From an uncultured Bifidobacteriaceae bacterium (GTDB lineage Bacteria > Actinomycetota > Actinomycetes > S36-B12 > CAIYMF01), in assembly GCA_964418695.1 (NCBI GenBank), contig CAYQMN010000013.1, positions 48-64,047 of the forward strand: 64,000 bases of DNA, read 5' to 3'. The notes below the pieces were generated by a model. That model did not search any database. It saw only the letters and a list, made by a program, of their open reading frames with translations, and was not told the DNA's origin. Below are positions 43,077 through 49,039 of this stretch, piece by piece. How positions within the stretch are numbered: position 1 is the first letter of the stretch; each line of letters begins with the position of its first letter. The translations under genes and the position numbers were made by a program.

Positions 43077-43223
43077 GGTGGGCTCCTGCCGGTGTGACGT
43101 GCTGGGAAAGTAGCGCCCGAGTGCGCCTCAGTGCGCGGCCACGGGCCTGACCCGCGCCGCGGTCCCTCGCCGGGTCGGGACGGCGCGCCGCCCGACGCGG
43201 GAGGTCCGGCCTACTCTGGGCCC

Positions 43224-44330
43224 ATGCCCGGAGTGCGCTGGCCCTCGACGCTCGGGGGGAGGCATGCCCGCGAGGACCGGACCCAGGTGCTGGACCGGGC
43301 CCCCGGCGCGCCCGGCGCGGACCCCGCCGCGGGCACCCGGGTCCTCCCGGTCGATCCCGCGACCCCGCCGGTCCCGGTCGCAGCGCCGGCCTCCCCGGCT
43401 GCACCCCCGCCCACTGCCCAGACCCCGCCCGCGCCCGATCCGGCGGCGCCGACCACGCTGCTGGCCGGCCGTCGCCTGCGGGGACAGGACACCGCCGAGC
43501 CCACGCCACCCCTGCTGACCCGCGTGGAGGCGGCCGAGGTCGGCCTCTACGTCGGGGGCGTCCTGATGGCCCTGGCGGTGCTCCTGCAGGCCGCGCGCGG
43601 CTGGCAGGGGACGGCGGACTGGGTCCAGGCCGTCTCGCTCGGGCTGACCTCCTTCGTGCTGCTGGCGACTGGGTTCTTCGTGCGGCTGCCCTGGTCGCGC
43701 ACGCTCGGGCCGCAGCGGCGCCGGGCGATCTCGGTGCTGCTGGTCAGCGGGGCGGGGTTCGCCCTGATCGGCATCGGGGCGGCGGCTGACGTGCGCCGTG
43801 GCGCCGCGCAGGCCCTGCTGCTCGCGCATGTCGTGATCGCCGTGCTCACCATGGTCCTGGTCTGCCGGATCGCGCGGACTCCGGCGTCGGAGTCGGGCGT
43901 GCTGGCCGCGTCGGTGTGGGGGGTCTGGGTGCTGGCGCCGGCTGGGGCGGGCTGCTGGCTGGGCCTGGCCGCCCTGGGCATGGCGTGGGTGCTCCTGGGC
44001 ACGCGCTGGGCGCAGGGACCACACACGGCGCGGGTCACCGGCACGCTGCTCGCGCTGTGCGCGGCCGTGGGCCTGGCGCAGGGGGAGTGGAAGTGGGCGG
44101 TGGCGCTGGTCCTGGCCGGGCTGAGCGTGACCGGGCTGGTGATGTTCGTGCGGGGCGGGCCCAACCACTGGCTGGCGCTGGGTGCGGCCAGCGCGACGGC
44201 GCTGGCCGGGTCGATCACCGGGGGTCAGGGCCCGCTGCTGGCCCTGGCGGTCGGCGGGCTGGCCACGATGCTGGTCTCGGGGATCGCGCTGCGCTCGGCG
44301 ACCCGATCCACCGGCCGGCCCGCACGCTAG
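43224..44330 (+). CDS. Polytopic membrane protein with a Pro-rich cytoplasmic N-terminus (hypothetical)
   Basis: ATG 43224 opens a ~100-aa Pro/Ala-rich segment followed by ~8 hydrophobic helices. No motif recognised. Confidence 0.55.
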   Translation: MPGVRWPSTLGGRHAREDRTQVLDRAPGAPGADPAAGTRVLPVDPATPPVPVAAPASPAAPPPTAQTPPAPDPAAPTTLLAGRRLRGQDTAEPTPPLLTRVEAAEVGLYVGGVLMALAVLLQAARGWQGTADWVQAVSLGLTSFVLLATGFFVRLPWSRTLGPQRRRAISVLLVSGAGFALIGIGAAADVRRGAAQALLLAHVVIAVLTMVLVCRIARTPASESGVLAASVWGVWVLAPAGAGCWLGLAALGMAWVLLGTRWAQGPHTARVTGTLLALCAAVGLAQGEWKWAVALVLAGLSVTGLVMFVRGGPNHWLALGAASATALAGSITGGQGPLLALAVGGLATMLVSGIALRSATRSTGRPAR

Positions 44331-44465
44331 CGCCGAGCCGGGCTCGTCCACCCGCTGGCCGTGGGACGCGCCGGAACTCCGGCCTCCCCGGTGAAGGAGC
44401 CGGGCGTCCGGTCGTCCGTCGGGCGTAGCCTCGGAGATCCTGAGCCCTTCTCCGAAGGAGTGTCC

Positions 44466-44978
44466 GTGGCCCTCAACGCGTATCTCGACCTGGTCGGCGT
44501 CCAGCAGGGTCGGATCAAGGGCTCCGTCACCCAGAAGGGACGCGAGGGCCTGATCCAGGTGATCGCGGTGAACCATGGGATCCAGGCGCCGCGGGACGCG
44601 GTCTCGGGCCTGGCGACCGGGAAGCGCCAGCACGGTCCACTCGTCCTCACCAAGGAGGTGGACAAGGCCACCGTGCCGCTGCGCCGCATGCTGGTCGACC
44701 ACGAGCTGGCCTCCTCGTGGGAGCTCAAGCTCTGGTTCCCGGCCGCCATCGGAGCCGCCGGGGCCGGGGTGGGTCAGGAGAAGCAGCTCCTCACCATCCG
44801 GCTGACCGATGCCGCGATCGCGTCGATCGACCTCCAGCTGCCAAACACCAAGGACCCCGACCTGGTCACGCTCCAGCCGTTCGAGGAGGTCGCGTTCGCG
44901 TACGTGGGGATCGAGTGGATCTGGACCGACGGCGGTGTCACGGCCAGCGACGCCCTCACTCCGGGAGGTCTGCCCTAG
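44466..44978 (+). CDS. hcp: Hcp (TssD) family protein, orphan
   Basis: GTG 44466 has GAAGGAG 6 nt upstream. The 170-aa product resembles enterobacterial Hcp/TssD by eye along its full length. The matching segments are YLDLVGVQQGRIKGS, TGKRQHGPLVLTKEVDKATVPLRRML, ELKLWF and VAFAYVGIEWIWTDGGVTASD. Confidence 0.75.
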   Translation: MALNAYLDLVGVQQGRIKGSVTQKGREGLIQVIAVNHGIQAPRDAVSGLATGKRQHGPLVLTKEVDKATVPLRRMLVDHELASSWELKLWFPAAIGAAGAGVGQEKQLLTIRLTDAAIASIDLQLPNTKDPDLVTLQPFEEVAFAYVGIEWIWTDGGVTASDALTPGGLP

Positions 44979-44987
44979 GGAGCCGCC

Positions 44988-45041
44988 GACGCACCCATCA
45001 GCCCCCGAACCCTGGTGGGTCCGGGGGCTGATGGGTGCGTC
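44988..45041. terminator. Strong bidirectional hairpin between convergent hcp and cspA
   Basis: A perfect 20-bp stem joins GACGCACCCATCAGCCCCCG (44988-45007) to CGGGGGCTGATGGGTGCGTC (45022-45041) around a 14-nt loop. Confidence 0.75.
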
Positions 45042-45053
45042 AGTCTGGGTGCC

Positions 45054-45257
45054 TCAGAGGGGGCGGACCTGGTCGGCCTGCGGGCCCTTCTGCCCCTGGG
45101 TCACCTCGAACTCAACCCGCTGCTCCTCCTCGAGCGACCGGTAGCCGTTCGTCTGGATCGCGCTGTAGTGGACGAAGACGTCTGCGGAGCCGTCGTCGGG
45201 GGCGATGAAGCCGTACCCCTTCTCGGCGTTGAACCACTTGACGGTGCCTTGTGCCAT
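45054..45257 (-). CDS. cspA: Cold-shock protein (CspA family)
   Basis: The product is [35 protein letters not shown].., with RNP1 (KGYGFI) and RNP2 (VFVH). A long 5' UTR-like gap lies upstream. Confidence 0.95.
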
Positions 45258-45503
45258 GGTGCTGTGTGCTCCTGTACTTCTGTGGGTGTGAACCGCTGAC
45301 GACGTCGTGCGTCCAACAGCCAGCACACCGTACCTCAGCACGGCGCGGATTCCGGCATGTGAGCGCGCCGAAATCTCGAGGCATTTCCGCGGAACGGCCG
45401 ATGAGTCTGGGATTCGGCGCCCATCCCGGCGGCTCAAGCGAAGGCTGCGGGCGGCCGCACGGGCGCGGGCAGCGGCCCGGGGCGGTCGCCTAGGCTGCCT
45501 CGC

Positions 45504-46643
45504 GTGCTCATCCGACACTTGACGATCGGCGGCCTGCGCTCCTTCCCGGCGCAGCCCCAGCGGGTCGATCTGGCCCCGCTCACTCTGGTCTTCGGGCCCA
45601 ATTCGGCCGGGAAGTCCTCGCTGCTCTCGGTGCTGCCGATGCTGGAGCAGACCGCGTCGCGGCCCGACGTGCTGACCATGTCCGGCGATCTGGTCGAGGG
45701 CGGCTCGTTCCGGATGGCGGTGCACCGCCACGACATCGACGCGCCGATGACCCTGGGGTTCGGCTGGACCTCGGCGGCTGGCGTGCCGCGCGAGGCCGCG
45801 ATCGCGTTCCGCTGGGACCCGCAGCGCCGCACCGCGGTCCGTGCGCGCACCTGGCTCACCGATGGCGAGGAATCCGGGGAGCTGGTGGGTGGCCGACCGT
45901 GGGGCGACCAGCCCGGGGTGGCTCTGCATCGGCGGGTCTCCCCGGAGTTCTGGGGGACGCTGGACCACGTCCACTTCGTCGGGCCGATCCGGGCGCGGAT
46001 CGAGCGGGCCACCATGGTGGGCCAGACCGGCGGGCAGTACGTCGGCCCGGCCGGTGAGGCGATGGGGGCGATCCTGCACGCGGACCCCGATCTGCTGGCC
46101 CAGGTGAACGCCTGGTGCGACCGGCTCGGCGTCGGATATCGCGTCCGCATGCTGGACATCGGCACCCAGGAGGTGGTGCAGGTCGCCGGCGAGTTCGCGG
46201 TGCTCGCCCTGGAGGACGTGCGTCACGACCCGCCGGTGCTGGTCTCCTCGCGCAGCGTCGGGTACGGGATCGGCCAGCTGCTGCCGATCATCACCCAGTG
46301 CCTGCTCACCGACGAGGACCTGATCCTGGTCGAGCAGCCCGAGGTCCACCTGCACCCACGCCTGCAGGCGGCGGTCGGCGACCTGTTCGTGGACACCGTG
46401 CGCCAGGGCCGCGCCCAGCTGCTGGTCGAGACGCACTCCGAGCATCTGGTCCTGCGTCTGCTGCGGCGGGTCCGCGAGGGCACGCTGGCTCCCGACGAGC
46501 TGGCGATCCTCTACGTCGACCTGGATGACCAGGGCGGGGCGTTCGTGCGCCGGCTGGACGTCGATGACGAGGGTGACCTGGTCGACGGCTGGCCCGGCGG
46601 GTTCTTCGACGAGCGGCTGGCCGACGTGCTGGGCGGTCGCTGA
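45504..46643 (+). CDS. ABC/SMC-like ATPase (AAA_15/AAA_21 type) with DUF3696-like WPGGFF C-terminal tail
   Basis: GTG 45504 is the start. Walker A is GPNSAGKSS (K37), Walker B-like is [13 protein letters not shown] and the H-loop is ETHSEHL. The C-terminal tail reads [16 protein letters not shown]. Confidence 0.85.
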
Positions 46644-47797
46644 TGGCCCAGCCCCCCGCCACGCCGCCCGGGCAGCCGCCCCCGCCCGCCGCGCCGCCGC
46701 GCCGTGCGGTGTTCGGGGTGTCCATCTCGGCCGACGCCCTGGGCGACCGGTCCGAGGACCCGGCGCTGCGCCGGGCGATCCACGAGGACCTGCTCGAGGA
46801 CCTCGCGGTGCACGGGCGGCTGGTGTTCACCTCCCAGCACCATCTGGACCTGTTCGTCGCCGCGGTCGCCGCGCTGCCCACCTCGCTGGCCAAGTCCTGG
46901 GAGGCGGTGCTGTCCAGTCGCAAGGTGCAGGTGGGGATCGCCCGCCCGCCGCTGGACGAGTCGCTGGGCAACCTGCTGGACCCCGAGCTCATCGAGGCCG
47001 AGCTGGCCGACGACCTGGAGCTGATCCTGGTGGAGGCCGACCAGGCCGAGCTGCTGGGCGTGGCTGCCGACGAGTTCTCCTCGACCACTCCGTCCGGGCT
47101 GGTCGAGATCGGCCGGATCACGACCGCCGGGCGCACGGTGGTGCTCAAGGCGGCTCGCGAGGTCCTGGACGCGCCGCTGCGCGAGGGGGTCAACCGGGAG
47201 GTCGAGTGGACCCAGCGGTTCGGCCCGCTGTGCGAGGGCGCCAAGCCGCTGGTCATCTACGACAAGTTCGTCGGTCAGCAGACCGTGCGGCGCTACCTGT
47301 ACGGCGCGGGCAGCGGCGACGGGCTGACGTGGTTCCTGGCCCGGGTCGGCATGGTGCCCGGGCGGCGGGTCCGGATCATCACGGCGATCACCGACGCGGC
47401 CGAGCGCGGCCAGCGCTTCGACGAGGAGGCGATGGTCGCGGCGTTCCACCGGCTGCTCGCGTCGATGGCCGACCGGGACCTGCGGCTGGACCTGGTGCTC
47501 GTGCCGGAGAAGGTGCGCGGTGGTGGCGGTGCGGGTGCGGGCGGTCGCGGGGGCGGTGCGGGGGCCGGCCGGGGTGGCGGTGCCGGCCGAGGGGTCGAGC
47601 GGTTCGGCCACGACCGGCACCTGCGCTTCGGCGAGCGGGCCGCGCTCGCGCTGGGCGCGGGGATGCAGTCGTTCGCCACGGCCACGTTCCGCGAGACGGT
47701 CACGGTCGCCCGGCTGCCAGTCCAGGACGCCAAGGCCCGCGAGGAGCGCGCGATCAAGTCCGCGGTCCGCCCTCCACCAGGCGGCTGGCTCGGCTGA
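46643..47797 (+). CDS. Hypothetical protein with a C-terminal MIT_C-like (PLD-fold) domain interrupted by an Arg/Gly-rich insert
   Basis: ATG 46643 overlaps the ATPase stop TGA 46641-46643. The C-terminal motifs are PLVIYDKFV, a variable stretch, then [22 protein letters not shown]...RETVTV. These align without gaps to my recollection of the human MITD1 MIT_C core, [22 protein letters not shown]. Confidence 0.7.
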
Positions 47798-47874
47798 GCC
47801 CGCGGCGCCCTGCGCCCCGTCCCGTCCTCGGAGTCTGGTGGCTTTCGGTCGCCCGGGCAGGGCAGACTCATCAG

Positions 47875-47895
47875 GCCCGCGGGAGGGGCGCGGGC
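47875..47895. terminator. Short GC hairpin between convergent 46643..47797 and nagA
   Basis: GCCCGCG (47875-47881) pairs with CGCGGGC (47889-47895) around a 7-nt loop. Confidence 0.35.
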
Positions 47896-47899
47896 TACC

Positions 47900-49039
47900 T
47901 CAGCGGGCTACGGGGGTGCCGGCCGCCCACACGCCTGCGAGGTCGAGGTCGGCGGTGACGTGGCACAGGTCCGCCCGCGCACCGACGGCCAGGACGCCCC
48001 GGTCCGACAGGTCCAGCAGCCGGGCCGGGGTCGACGTGAGTGCGGCGAAGGCGTCGGCCGGGCTCATCCCCACCTGCTCGATGGCGAACTTGAGGGCGTG
48101 GTCGGTGGTCAGCGTCGAGCCGGCGATTGCCCCACCGTCGACCAGCCGGGCAACCCCGTCGACGACCAGCACGGGCAGCTCGCCCAGCAGGTACTCGCCG
48201 TCCTCGCCCGCGGCGGCGGTCATCGCGTCGGTGACCATGACGATCCGGCCCTGCGCGGCCCGCTGGGCGAACGCCGCGGCGGCCGGGTGGACGTGCACGC
48301 CGTCCAGGATCAGCTCGACGGTGACGCGCTCATCCTCGGTCAGCGCCACGATCGGACCGGGCTCGCGGTGGTTCACCGGTCGCATCGCGTTGTAGAGGTG
48401 GGTGGCGACGGTGGCGCCCGCGTCGATCGCGGCGCGCACCTGGTCGTAGGTCGCGTTGGTGTGTCCGATCGCGGCGATCGCCCCGGCATCGGCGAACCGG
48501 CGGACCGCGTCGATCCCGTGCGGGTACTCCGGGGCCAGGGTCACCATCCGGACGGTGCCCCGCCCGATCTTGATCAGCGAGTCGACCTCCGCGGGGTCGG
48601 GGTCGCGCAGGGTCGCCGGGTCGTGGGCGCCCTTGTACTCCATGGCGATCCACGGGCCCTCGAGGTGGGTGCCGGCGATGATCCCCTGCTCGGTGAGCTC
48701 GGCCAGGGCGGCCACGTCGTGGGCCAGCGACTCGGGAGTCCCGGACACGAGGCTGGCGATGATCGTGGTGGTGCCGTGCTGGCGGTGGGCCGTGGCGAAG
48801 CGGGCGACCGCCTCGGGATCGCCACCGACGACGGTTGCGCCGCCGCCGCCGTGGGTGTGGATGTCGATGAACCCGGGGCTCAGGTAGCCGCCGCCGAGCT
48901 CGACGTCCGCCGGCCGCGGCGGGGCGCCTGTGCCGAGGGCGGCGATCGTCCCCCCGTCCACCTCCAGCCATCCGTTGTCGAGGATTCCCTCAGGGGAGAC
49001 GAGCTGGGCGCCGGCGAGGATGAAGGTCATGGGAGGCAT
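47900..49039 (-). CDS. nagA: N-acetylglucosamine-6-phosphate deacetylase
   Basis: Carries the amidohydrolase motifs GFIDIHTHGGGG, HLEGP, IGHTNA and THLYNAM. An alternative start is ATG 49030. Confidence 0.9.
   Translation of the reverse strand: MPPMTFILAGAQLVSPEGILDNGWLEVDGGTIAALGTGAPPRPADVELGGGYLSPGFIDIHTHGGGGATVVGGDPEAVARFATAHRQHGTTTIIASLVSGTPESLAHDVAALAELTEQGIIAGTHLEGPWIAMEYKGAHDPATLRDPDPAEVDSLIKIGRGTVRMVTLAPEYPHGIDAVRRFADAGAIAAIGHTNATYDQVRAAIDAGATVATHLYNAMRPVNHREPGPIVALTEDERVTVELILDGVHVHPAAAAFAQRAAQGRIVMVTDAMTAAAGEDGEYLLGELPVLVVDGVARLVDGGAIAGSTLTTDHALKFAIEQVGMSPADAFAALTSTPARLLDLSDRGVLAVGARADLCHVTADLDLAGVWAAGTPVAR

Follow-up and report, generated by a model that had tools for sequence, protein, structure and literature searches.

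An NsnB-type ATPase and an MIT_C-like partner form a candidate two-gene relative of Menshen and HEC-03 in an uncultured actinobacterium

The 64,000-nucleotide stretch of DNA analysed here (the window; uncultured Bifidobacteriaceae bacterium, GenBank assembly GCA_964418695.1, contig CAYQMN010000013.1) contains two overlapping genes, one for an ABC ATPase and one for a partner protein with a predicted C-terminal phospholipase D (PLD)-fold domain. We lean, if only slightly, towards reading this pair as a conflict module made of two genes, a member of the Menshen/HEC-03 lineage without NsnA, the sensor of Menshen. The pair likely functions in defence. The pair is a two-gene relative of Menshen and HEC-03 and not a new type of system; what is new is that it has no NsnA/DUF262 sensor gene, that the partner family lies outside the PADLOC effector models, and that the two domains of the partner evolve together. 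A preliminary description of this DNA had proposed a sensor-ATPase/effector module that was undescribed and without a named precedent. Its sensor/effector logic is still the best-supported interpretation, given the domain identities, the coupling of the genes and the defence contexts of distant relatives, and its domain calls hold as well. The word undescribed holds only in part: the two-gene family is absent from PADLOC v2.0, and we found no publication that describes a family of NsnA-less ATPases with MIT_C-like partners, but the ATPase type and the PB-PLD1 domain had both been described. The claim that the pairing is without precedent has to be given up, as NsnB, HEC-03 and PDC-M55 ATPases are in PADLOC, PB-PLD1 occurs in the NsnC protein of Menshen, and HEC-03 is a validated system. 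Last, the housekeeping synteny around the pair weakens the defence reading within the window's own clade.

The ATPase gene occupies positions 45504 to 46643 of the forward strand and encodes 379 residues, from a GTG start to a TGA stop at 46641-46643. The partner gene follows on the same strand (46643 to 47797, 384 residues, ATG start at 46643-46645). The last base of the ATPase stop codon is the first base of the partner start codon (TGATG, 46641-46645), an overlap of the kind that gives translational coupling. GC content at third codon positions (GC3) is 0.93 in the ATPase open reading frame (ORF) and 0.95 in that of the partner, the same as in the neighbouring genes, in a window of 72.5% GC. 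Homologue searches returned more than 1,300 homologues of the ATPase and 125 of the partner, with E-values down to 1e-184 and 1e-251. Because GC3 is of the coding type and strong homologues are many, both ORFs are real genes and not chance ORFs. The preliminary description had placed both genes and their one-base overlap correctly, and the motifs that it quoted are all present (GPNSAGKS, LILVEQPE, ETHSEH and WPGGFF in the ATPase; PLVIYDKFV and FGHDRHLRF in the partner).

The ATPase matched Pfam AAA_21 (1.7e-18), AAA_15 (9.6e-18) and DUF3696 (2.4e-4; at 21.7 bits just below the Pfam cut-off of 22 bits), which is the layout given in the preliminary description. In PADLOC the best model was PDC-M55A (2.9e-49, mainly over the C-terminal two-thirds, in two stretches), followed by a full-length match to NsnB (7.6e-46, residues 3-373 against positions 2-337 of 345) and a match to HEC-03B, the HEC-03 ATPase model (8.9e-36). 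The three models score about equally on every ATPase of the pair family; thus, these matches identify the clade of the ATPase rather than the system to which it belongs. Matches to AriA (1.3e-19), GajA and PtuA were weaker, 25-30 orders of magnitude below NsnB.

The sequence motifs of the ATPase point in the same direction. NsnB proteins are reported to deviate from other ABC ATPases in three ways: the Walker B DE dyad is changed to glutamate plus an amide, the Q-loop glutamine to arginine, and the SGG signature to GxG (Li et al., PMC12065111). All three deviations are present and strictly conserved in the ATPase family of the window. In the variant Walker B motif LILVEQPE (residues 273-280, positions 46320-46343, forward strand like all features of the pair), EQ replaces the DE dyad, analogous to the change from DE to EN in NsnB, and the block EQPE.H.HP shows strict conservation throughout the family, from close to distant members. 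The Q-loop reads GPIR, with arginine for glutamine, across the family. At the position of the SGG signature, SVGYGIGQ (residues 251-258, 46254-46277) carries GxG, and G[YF]G[IVL][GS]Q is conserved. The remaining motifs are intact: the Walker A motif or P-loop GPNSAGKS (residues 31-38, with K37; 45594-45617) is kept in all aligned family ATPases apart from the one at locus L067, whose gene call is N-terminally truncated, and the H-loop or sensor histidine ETHSEH (residues 309-314, 46428-46445) lies in a block, ETHSE, that is invariant in the family. The DUF3696 tail (PF12476; residues 329-372, 46488-46619) contains a conserved motif of 10 protein letters (not shown); WPGGFF lies at residues 363-368, and WP.GFF.ER is kept from close relatives to relatives in defence islands. 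Because the ATPase has a full-length NsnB match, a DUF3696 tail and the three motif deviations, its sequence identifies it as a genuine NsnB-type ABC ATPase.

Within this family, the ATPases of the window's clade are short. At about 380 residues they lack 80-160 residues between the P-loop and GPIR that are found in more distant pair ATPases (459-543 residues; loci compared were L003, L061-L066, L148 and L149). The missing stretch probably corresponds to Insert-1 of ABC ATPases, a region that has been proposed to help set trigger specificity (HEC study, bioRxiv 10.1101/2024.01.29.577857). If so, the surface with which the ATPase of the window senses its trigger may be smaller or changed.

The partner is a two-domain protein, and its C-terminal domain (residues ~183-384, 47189-47794) was assigned to the MIT_C-like, or PB-PLD1-like, PLD folds by profile search and Pfam. 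We used two alignments, one of 34 partner homologues (A1) and one of 107 sequences of the superfamily, down to about 20% identity (A3). In A3, invariance is confined to D207, H323 and R325; R328, F329, G340 and E367 are near-invariant. D207 (codon 47261-47263) is the aspartate of the YD motif in PLVIYDKFV, and we infer that it is the conserved acidic residue that follows strand b2 in PB-PLD1 and MIT_C. The other two invariant residues belong to the HDR motif (H323-D324-R325, codons 47609-47617) in FGHDRHLRF, an HxR variant of the HxK of PLD enzymes; FGHDRHxRF is invariant in A1. When the A3 profile was searched against 177,635 distinct Protein Data Bank (PDB) sequences, only human MITD1 was significant (4a5z, 7.4e-6; 2ymb, 1.9e-5). 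The alignment spans the HDRxIRF...G.GLD.F core and places the HDR of the partner on the HDREIRF of MITD1. Pfam MIT_C (PF16565) was matched by 10 of the 34 members of A1 and 28 of the 107 members of A3, at best with 1.1e-5. Distant partners matched the C-terminal region of a BrxL model, and an MIT_C-like domain at the C-termini of BrxL proteins has been noted (Li et al., PMC12065111). The profile and Pfam matches indicate that the C-terminal domain is homologous to MIT_C, an assignment that the preliminary description had already made.

The predicted structure is compatible with a PLD fold. The AlphaFold2 model of the full-length partner has a mean predicted local distance difference test score (pLDDT) of 88.6 and a predicted template modelling score (pTM) of 0.85. 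Among the Foldseek matches listed for this model, NucT had a probability of 0.99 (TMt 0.50), FAM83/BJ-TSA-9 (4urj) 0.87, PssA 0.82 and a poxvirus F13-type protein (orf virus) 0.82, and the high-probability matches listed were PLD-superfamily proteins. No Foldseek match reached E<=1e-3, and MITD1 itself lay outside the top 50. The partner does not contain the canonical HKD motif, HxK(x)4D(x)6G[GS]xN; it has H323-D-R325-H-x-R328-F...G338-x-G340, and the HxR variant in place of HKD is common to the partner and MITD1.

Other searches with the partner, and one part of its sequence, need care. The narrower A1 profile gave no matches among the PDB sequences even at E<=10. Single-sequence PDB matches of the partner were rejected; they are low-complexity Gly-linker artefacts from a Gly-rich insert. 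This insertion, rich in Gly, Ala and Arg (residues ~291-313, 47512-47581; 25 protein letters, not shown), lies in the loop directly before the HDR motif, is specific to this strain, and is a degenerate 21-nt tandem repeat in Tandem Repeats Finder (period 21, 2.0-2.4 copies, 80% matches). It is absent from all 33 other A1 sequences, and pLDDT falls below 50 at residues 294-315. The insertion probably arose by replication slippage.

The N-terminal domain of the partner (residues ~20-180, 46700-47182) is an alpha/beta domain in the AlphaFold2 model, where its elements follow the order b1-a-a-b2-a-a-b3-a-b4-a-b5 with good confidence. W86 and E155 are near-invariant in this domain across A3. The novel part of the partner had been put at about 220 residues; it is nearer 180, as the PLD-like domain begins near residue 183. 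It is true that this part belongs to no recognised family, since the partner matched nothing in Pfam, NCBIfam or PADLOC. The fold in the model is compatible with a PIN/Rossmann-like domain, but the Foldseek top 50 of the full-length model held no PIN protein, the domain modelled in isolation was of low confidence (pLDDT 53, pTM 0.43), and none of the 107 superfamily members matched a Pfam PIN family. Another idea, that the N-terminal domain might be a degenerate second PLD lobe, came from Foldseek, which had aligned bilobed PLD enzymes with the entire partner. At the sequence level this was rejected (hhalign probability of 0.1% between the N- and C-terminal domains). The two domains diverge together, with 56% and 58% identity within the clade and 23% and 24% across the superfamily. 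Thus, they evolve as one unit, and they are packed as one in the model.

The pair is rare but tightly linked. Among 185,579 species-representative genomes we found 52 pair loci, all in metagenome-assembled genomes (MAGs) of uncultured Actinomycetota. The ATPase gene lies directly upstream of the partner gene in 48 of the 48 loci that have upstream sequence. Across all loci that contain the pair, the two genes overlap by 4 bp (RTGA) in 40 loci and by 1 bp (TGATG) in six, and most of the others are no more than 12 bp apart. The same order of ATPase then partner was kept in all nine distant superfamily loci that we examined. The expectation that the two genes would be conserved as coupled neighbours is therefore borne out by adjacency in 48 of 48 loci and by overlap in 46. 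An exhaustive search of representative sequences returned 596 clusters of the partner family at E<=1e-3, mostly as full-length matches of 320-360 residues, and in a large homologue search with the A3 profile the matches were dominated by the actinobacterial clade. Outside that clade, the clusters examined yielded a single named organism, a Myxococcota MAG.

The contexts of the distant pairs connect the family to defence. Eight of the nine distant loci lie in defence or mobile contexts. One pair lies with McrB and NERD/UvrD, one with DndB, SNF2 and HTH/M78, one with an OLD nuclease and an integrase, one with Macro, ARPP-1 and a protein kinase, and one with a DUF499 and DUF1156 module. Two (L062 and L063) lie with a DpdB-type ParB protein and an HNH protein within Dpd/DndB/QueC/TGT clusters, and one (L067) abuts BrxE-A-B-C, GmrSD and PglX. 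The ninth (L064) lies near rnpA and yidC.

Two of these contexts show arrangements of their own. In two unrelated metagenome contigs (L062, 2336-7026; L063, 514-5236) the pair is part of a four-gene variant that consists of a DpdB-type ParB protein with a DGQQR motif, an HNH nuclease, the NsnB-type ATPase and the MIT_C-like partner, and that lies in 7-deazaguanine DNA-modification clusters (Dpd: QueC, PTPS, GCHY-1, TGT, DndB). The ParB-type protein might play the role of the NsnA sensor in this variant. In a Myxococcota MAG contig (L067, 88-10390) the pair directly precedes a BREX cluster that runs in the same direction and is made up of BrxE, BrxA, BrxB, a 1183-residue BrxC-sized gene product, a GmrSD/BrxU-like protein and a PglX-like methylase. 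The same MIT_C-like domain is found in some BrxL proteins, so that this pair might substitute for or complement BrxL.

Menshen is among the closest described systems. It consists of NsnA, a sensor with ParB-DUF262 and ParBDB domains, the ATPase NsnB, and NsnC, in which an inactive PIN domain at the N-terminus is joined to a variable C-terminal effector (Li et al., PMC12065111). The pair resembles Menshen in its NsnB-type ATPase with the DUF3696 tail and the three motif deviations, in a partner that has an N-terminal alpha/beta domain followed by an effector-type domain, and, in the wider family, in its proximity to BREX and to DNA modification and restriction genes. About 28% of Menshen loci have such associations with BREX or with DNA modification/restriction. 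One of the 15 families of NsnC effector domains, PB-PLD1, is described as MIT_C-like, with an acidic residue after b2 and HDR before b5, and NucT is listed among its structural matches; at least 12 of the 15 families are predicted nucleases (Li et al., PMC12065111). Judged from this published description, D207 and the HDR motif of the partner correspond to the PB-PLD1 signature.

The pair differs from Menshen in lacking NsnA. The gene upstream of it is cspA, which runs in the other direction, and no DGQQR motif of DUF262 was found in the six frames of the window. In the 67 loci scanned that contain the pair, genuine DGQQR genes were limited to those for DpdB/DndB (L062, L063) and GmrSD (L067), and no NsnA adjoins the pair. 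Two kinds of candidate were set aside. DGQQR matches in high-GC actinobacterial loci were off-frame artefacts in spurious frames rich in Arg, Gly and Pro, and the DGQQR proteins of about 500 residues at L062 and L063 are of the DpdB type rather than NsnA (PADLOC DpdB ~1e-40, no NsnA match). As the Menshen survey was seeded on DUF262, loci without NsnA fall outside it (Li et al., PMC12065111). Additional differences are that the partner domains co-evolve without independent shuffling, that the partner matches no PADLOC NsnC model, and that the pair of the window's clade is vertically inherited in a housekeeping locus.

HEC-03 (Hma-embedded candidate 03) consists of two genes, for an ABC ATPase and a VapC-like PIN protein; it has been validated by experiment, and both genes are needed for defence (Payne et al., bioRxiv 10.1101/2024.01.29.577857). 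Like the pair, it has one partner for its ATPase and no separate sensor gene. The partner of the window differs in having no PIN sequence signature, in its additional MIT_C-like PLD domain, and in matching no PADLOC model of the HEC-03 PIN partner. For PDC-M55 the likeness is confined to the ATPase; neither the window partner nor 10 distant partners matched a PDC-M55 second-gene model, or indeed any PADLOC effector model. MITD1 (2YMB, 4A5Z) is the only PDB sequence homologue of the C-terminal domain, at low identity, but it is eukaryotic, ESCRT-III-associated and membrane-binding, and it has no ABC ATPase partner. BrxL, an AAA+/Lon-like subunit of BREX, likewise has no ABC ATPase partner. In Septu (PtuAB), PARIS (AriAB) and Gabija (GajAB) an AAA_15/21-type ABC ATPase also controls a nuclease-type effector, but these effectors are of the HNH or Toprim type and not PLD, and the ATPases are without the DUF3696 tail and the NsnB deviations. 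The pair does not belong to Septu, PARIS, Gabija or Lamassu, as the cognate ATPase model was never the best match and the partner is of the PLD type.

Based on these comparisons, we propose a model of how the pair could work, by analogy with an AlphaFold 3 model of Menshen and with the structures of Septu, PARIS and Gabija. In the model of NsnB4-NsnC2, the DUF3696 tail clamps the N-terminal domain of NsnC (Li et al., PMC12065111). Similarly, the ATPase of the pair may oligomerise, and its paired DUF3696 tails may hold the N-terminal domain of the partner. This would keep the PLD domains, each with a single HxR motif, apart and inactive. Because no NsnA is present, the ATPase itself would sense the infection cue, for example DNA or a protein of the phage, or a shift in nucleotide level. 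ATP binding or slow hydrolysis, with EQ rather than DE in Walker B, would then release or reposition the effector. The released PLD domains could pair to form a two-histidine active site, as in PLD nucleases of the Nuc/NucT type; pairing is probably needed for activity because there is only one HxR motif per partner. Once active, the enzyme would cleave a phosphodiester, most likely in nucleic acid and possibly in membrane lipid; the phage would thereby be stopped or the cell killed (abortive infection). In the window's clade, we suggest that the module became a stably inherited chromosomal gene pair.

Several observations weigh against this defence reading, and most of them come from the window's own clade. 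The window lies in the core chromosome and carries sulfite/nitrite reductase, PPK2, CspA, an M20 peptidase, ArgRS and a lysA-hom-thrC-rho block, and the pair sits within a core synteny of PPK2 ... pair ... nagA/trypsin-like/M20 ... argS-lysA-hom-thrC-rho. We found no integrase, no further defence gene and no compositional anomaly near the pair in the window. Among close relatives, which keep the order PPK2 ... pair ... (nagA) ... trypsin-like ... M20, the partner is 72-80% identical, and its neighbours diverge to a similar degree (M20 70-86%, PPK2 ~70%, nagA ~80%). This similarity indicates vertical inheritance in the clade at a pace unlike that of fast-turnover defence genes. The N-terminal domain of the partner is not hypervariable and diverges like the C-terminal domain, unlike that of Menshen NsnC. 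A scan of phage contigs and tblastn searches of plasmids gave no copies of the pair. With regard to the effector, no single partner reaches the Pfam MIT_C gathering score of 25 bits, and the nuclease step is conjecture because MITD1 binds membranes without known catalysis.

Much of this would be expected if the pair were a domesticated or housekeeping module in which the ATPase and the PLD protein serve the cell's own nucleic-acid or membrane maintenance, for instance the processing of DNA ends or damage as in SbcCD or other ABC-ATPase/nuclease pairs, and were never, or no longer, immune. A synteny among housekeeping genes that is fixed in all close relatives, divergence at the pace of the neighbours, GC and GC3 equal to those of the flanks, and a window free of mobile-element genes and of other defence genes all fit this explanation, as do the pair beside SbcCD, PAP2 and WS_DGAT in another actinobacterial lineage and the one distant locus near rnpA-yidC. 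We nevertheless consider it rather improbable. Around M20, the pair is missing from some 25 loci of more distantly related Actinomycetota (M20 at 50-57%), and because of this we conclude that it was gained in an ancestor of the window's clade. Its presence in only 52 species representatives likewise speaks for an accessory gain rather than a conserved core function. Of its nine nearest relatives outside the clade, eight lie in a defence or mobile setting, the ATPase clade is known only from defence systems, and the genes directly flanking the pair vary among close relatives, which is more typical of an accessory hotspot. Fixed housekeeping synteny, which the preliminary description had taken to speak against a conflict module, is thus found, together with neighbour-paced divergence, inside the window's clade, whereas most of the distant relatives examined lie in defence or mobile contexts. 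A metagenome scan anchored on M20 gave three close-clade contigs, all short.

Two further explanations keep much of the same logic. In one, the pair is an addiction module similar to toxin-antitoxin systems, in which the PLD protein is the toxin, the ATPase neutralises it, the pair is kept in the chromosome since loss of the ATPase is lethal, and any effect on phage is secondary. Two genes that are always neighbours, one to one, and that share bases between stop and start codon would suit such a module, long vertical retention is compatible with it, the Pfam title of AAA_21, 'AAA domain, putative AbiEii toxin, Type IV TA system' (TA, toxin-antitoxin), ties this class of ATPase to TA-type modules, and HEC-03 strains were grown without isopropyl-β-D-thiogalactopyranoside (IPTG) 'due to apparent toxicity' (bioRxiv 10.1101/2024.01.29.577857). 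However, a regulated ATPase of 379 residues with an intact P-loop and H-loop is far beyond the needs of a simple antitoxin, and no plasmid copies were found, though addiction modules are typically common on plasmids. As this explanation overlaps largely with the abortive-infection model, it is not truly exclusive; on its own we regard it as quite improbable. The other explanation changes only the target. To our knowledge, MITD1 is the only characterised MIT_C protein, and we know of no catalytic activity for it. The PLD fold of MITD1 has been reported to bind membranes (Hadders et al. 2012, as cited in PMC12065111), so that the MIT_C-like domain of the partner might, as in MITD1, bind acidic phospholipids rather than cut nucleic acid, and the activated partner might bind, perturb or hydrolyse the membrane. 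That MITD1 is the only PDB sequence homologue, and that Foldseek also listed the lipid-acting PLD enzymes PssA and poxvirus F13, agree with this. Conversely, the nuclease NucT ranks first among single-domain structural matches, the invariant D207, H323 and R325 and the near-invariant R328 and E367 look catalytic, most other NsnC effector families are predicted nucleases, and no transmembrane or amphipathic anchor is evident in the partner model. A membrane target is therefore, in our view, likewise quite improbable. We continue to favour the two-gene conflict module.

If the pair is a working defence system, it would mean that an NsnB-type ATPase functions without the ParB/DUF262 sensor that defines Menshen. 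Sensing without NsnA bears on how Menshen itself detects infection; its authors offer no definitive hypothesis on signalling from NsnA to NsnB (Li, Tan, Basu, Corbett and Zhang, Nucleic Acids Research 2025, PMC12065111). Additionally, the pair is a compact two-protein system for the biochemistry of MIT_C/PB-PLD1, a domain that is common to BrxL of BREX and to human MITD1. The 596 clusters of the partner family are missed by the PADLOC v2.0 effector models, and adding them would improve annotation, especially in uncultured Actinomycetota. A copy that is vertically inherited and embedded among housekeeping genes departs from the view of defence genes as fast-turnover cargo of islands. Current concepts are not overturned, as modules of an ABC ATPase and a swappable effector are an established theme.

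We can extend this reading to a more ambitious one in two parts, to which, taken jointly, we give only a low probability. The first part is that about 600 clusters (at 50% identity) would be self-sufficient two-gene 'NsnBC-PLD' systems, of which this pair would be the first recognised; that their NsnB-type ATPases would sense infection without a ParB-type NsnA; and that the MIT_C-like HxR domain would be a true enzyme, activated by release and dimerisation. If true, this would be the first catalytic activity for the MIT_C fold that BrxL and human MITD1 have in common. The second part is that the module would have become fixed at a core locus in one actinobacterial lineage, with long vertical inheritance, either as a 'core immune gene' or repurposed for the maintenance of host nucleic acid.

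The remaining observations concern the immediate surroundings of the pair. The neighbours named in the preliminary description were all recovered by Pfam: cspA (CSD, 45054-45257, reverse strand), a nagA-like gene (Amidohydro_1, 47900-49039, reverse strand) and an orphan Hcp gene (T6SS_HCP, 4.5e-23; 44466-44978, forward strand). The genes directly flanking the pair (Hcp, cspA, a Pyr_redox/rhodanese gene and nagA) differ among close relatives when positions 43131-45503 and 47798-49039 of the window are compared with loci L001 and L006-L035. In place of the membrane-protein, Hcp and cspA genes found upstream of the pair in the window, L001 has a sulfate transporter, an unknown gene and the Pyr_redox/rhodanese gene. 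In many other relatives cspA lies about 2 kb further from the pair, and nagA is downstream in only about nine of about 25 close loci. Thus, the pair may sit at a small hotspot of gene gain and loss within an otherwise conserved synteny.

The terminator-like hairpins that had been described on both sides of the pair were not found: a terminator/promoter scan found nothing, with no terminator-like site at positions 44900-48100, and an Rfam scan of 40-52 kb of the window was likewise empty. Reading the sequence by eye, with no tool score, we noted a short 7-bp GC stem between the partner gene and nagA (~47875-47895). The orphan Hcp gene lies between the membrane-protein gene and cspA, and no other type VI secretion system (T6SS) gene is evident in the window. 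No copy of it was found by tblastn in related loci L001-L057, and its presence is confined to metagenome contigs that are nearly identical and come from this strain (L058, L059). The gene appears to be an insertion particular to the strain. Just one strong inverted repeat is present, and it lies away from the pair, between the convergent Hcp and cspA genes (44988-45041; 25-nt arms, 96% complementary, 4-nt loop). This repeat, which has no T-tract, probably serves as a bidirectional terminator, and it may mark the junction of the Hcp insertion.

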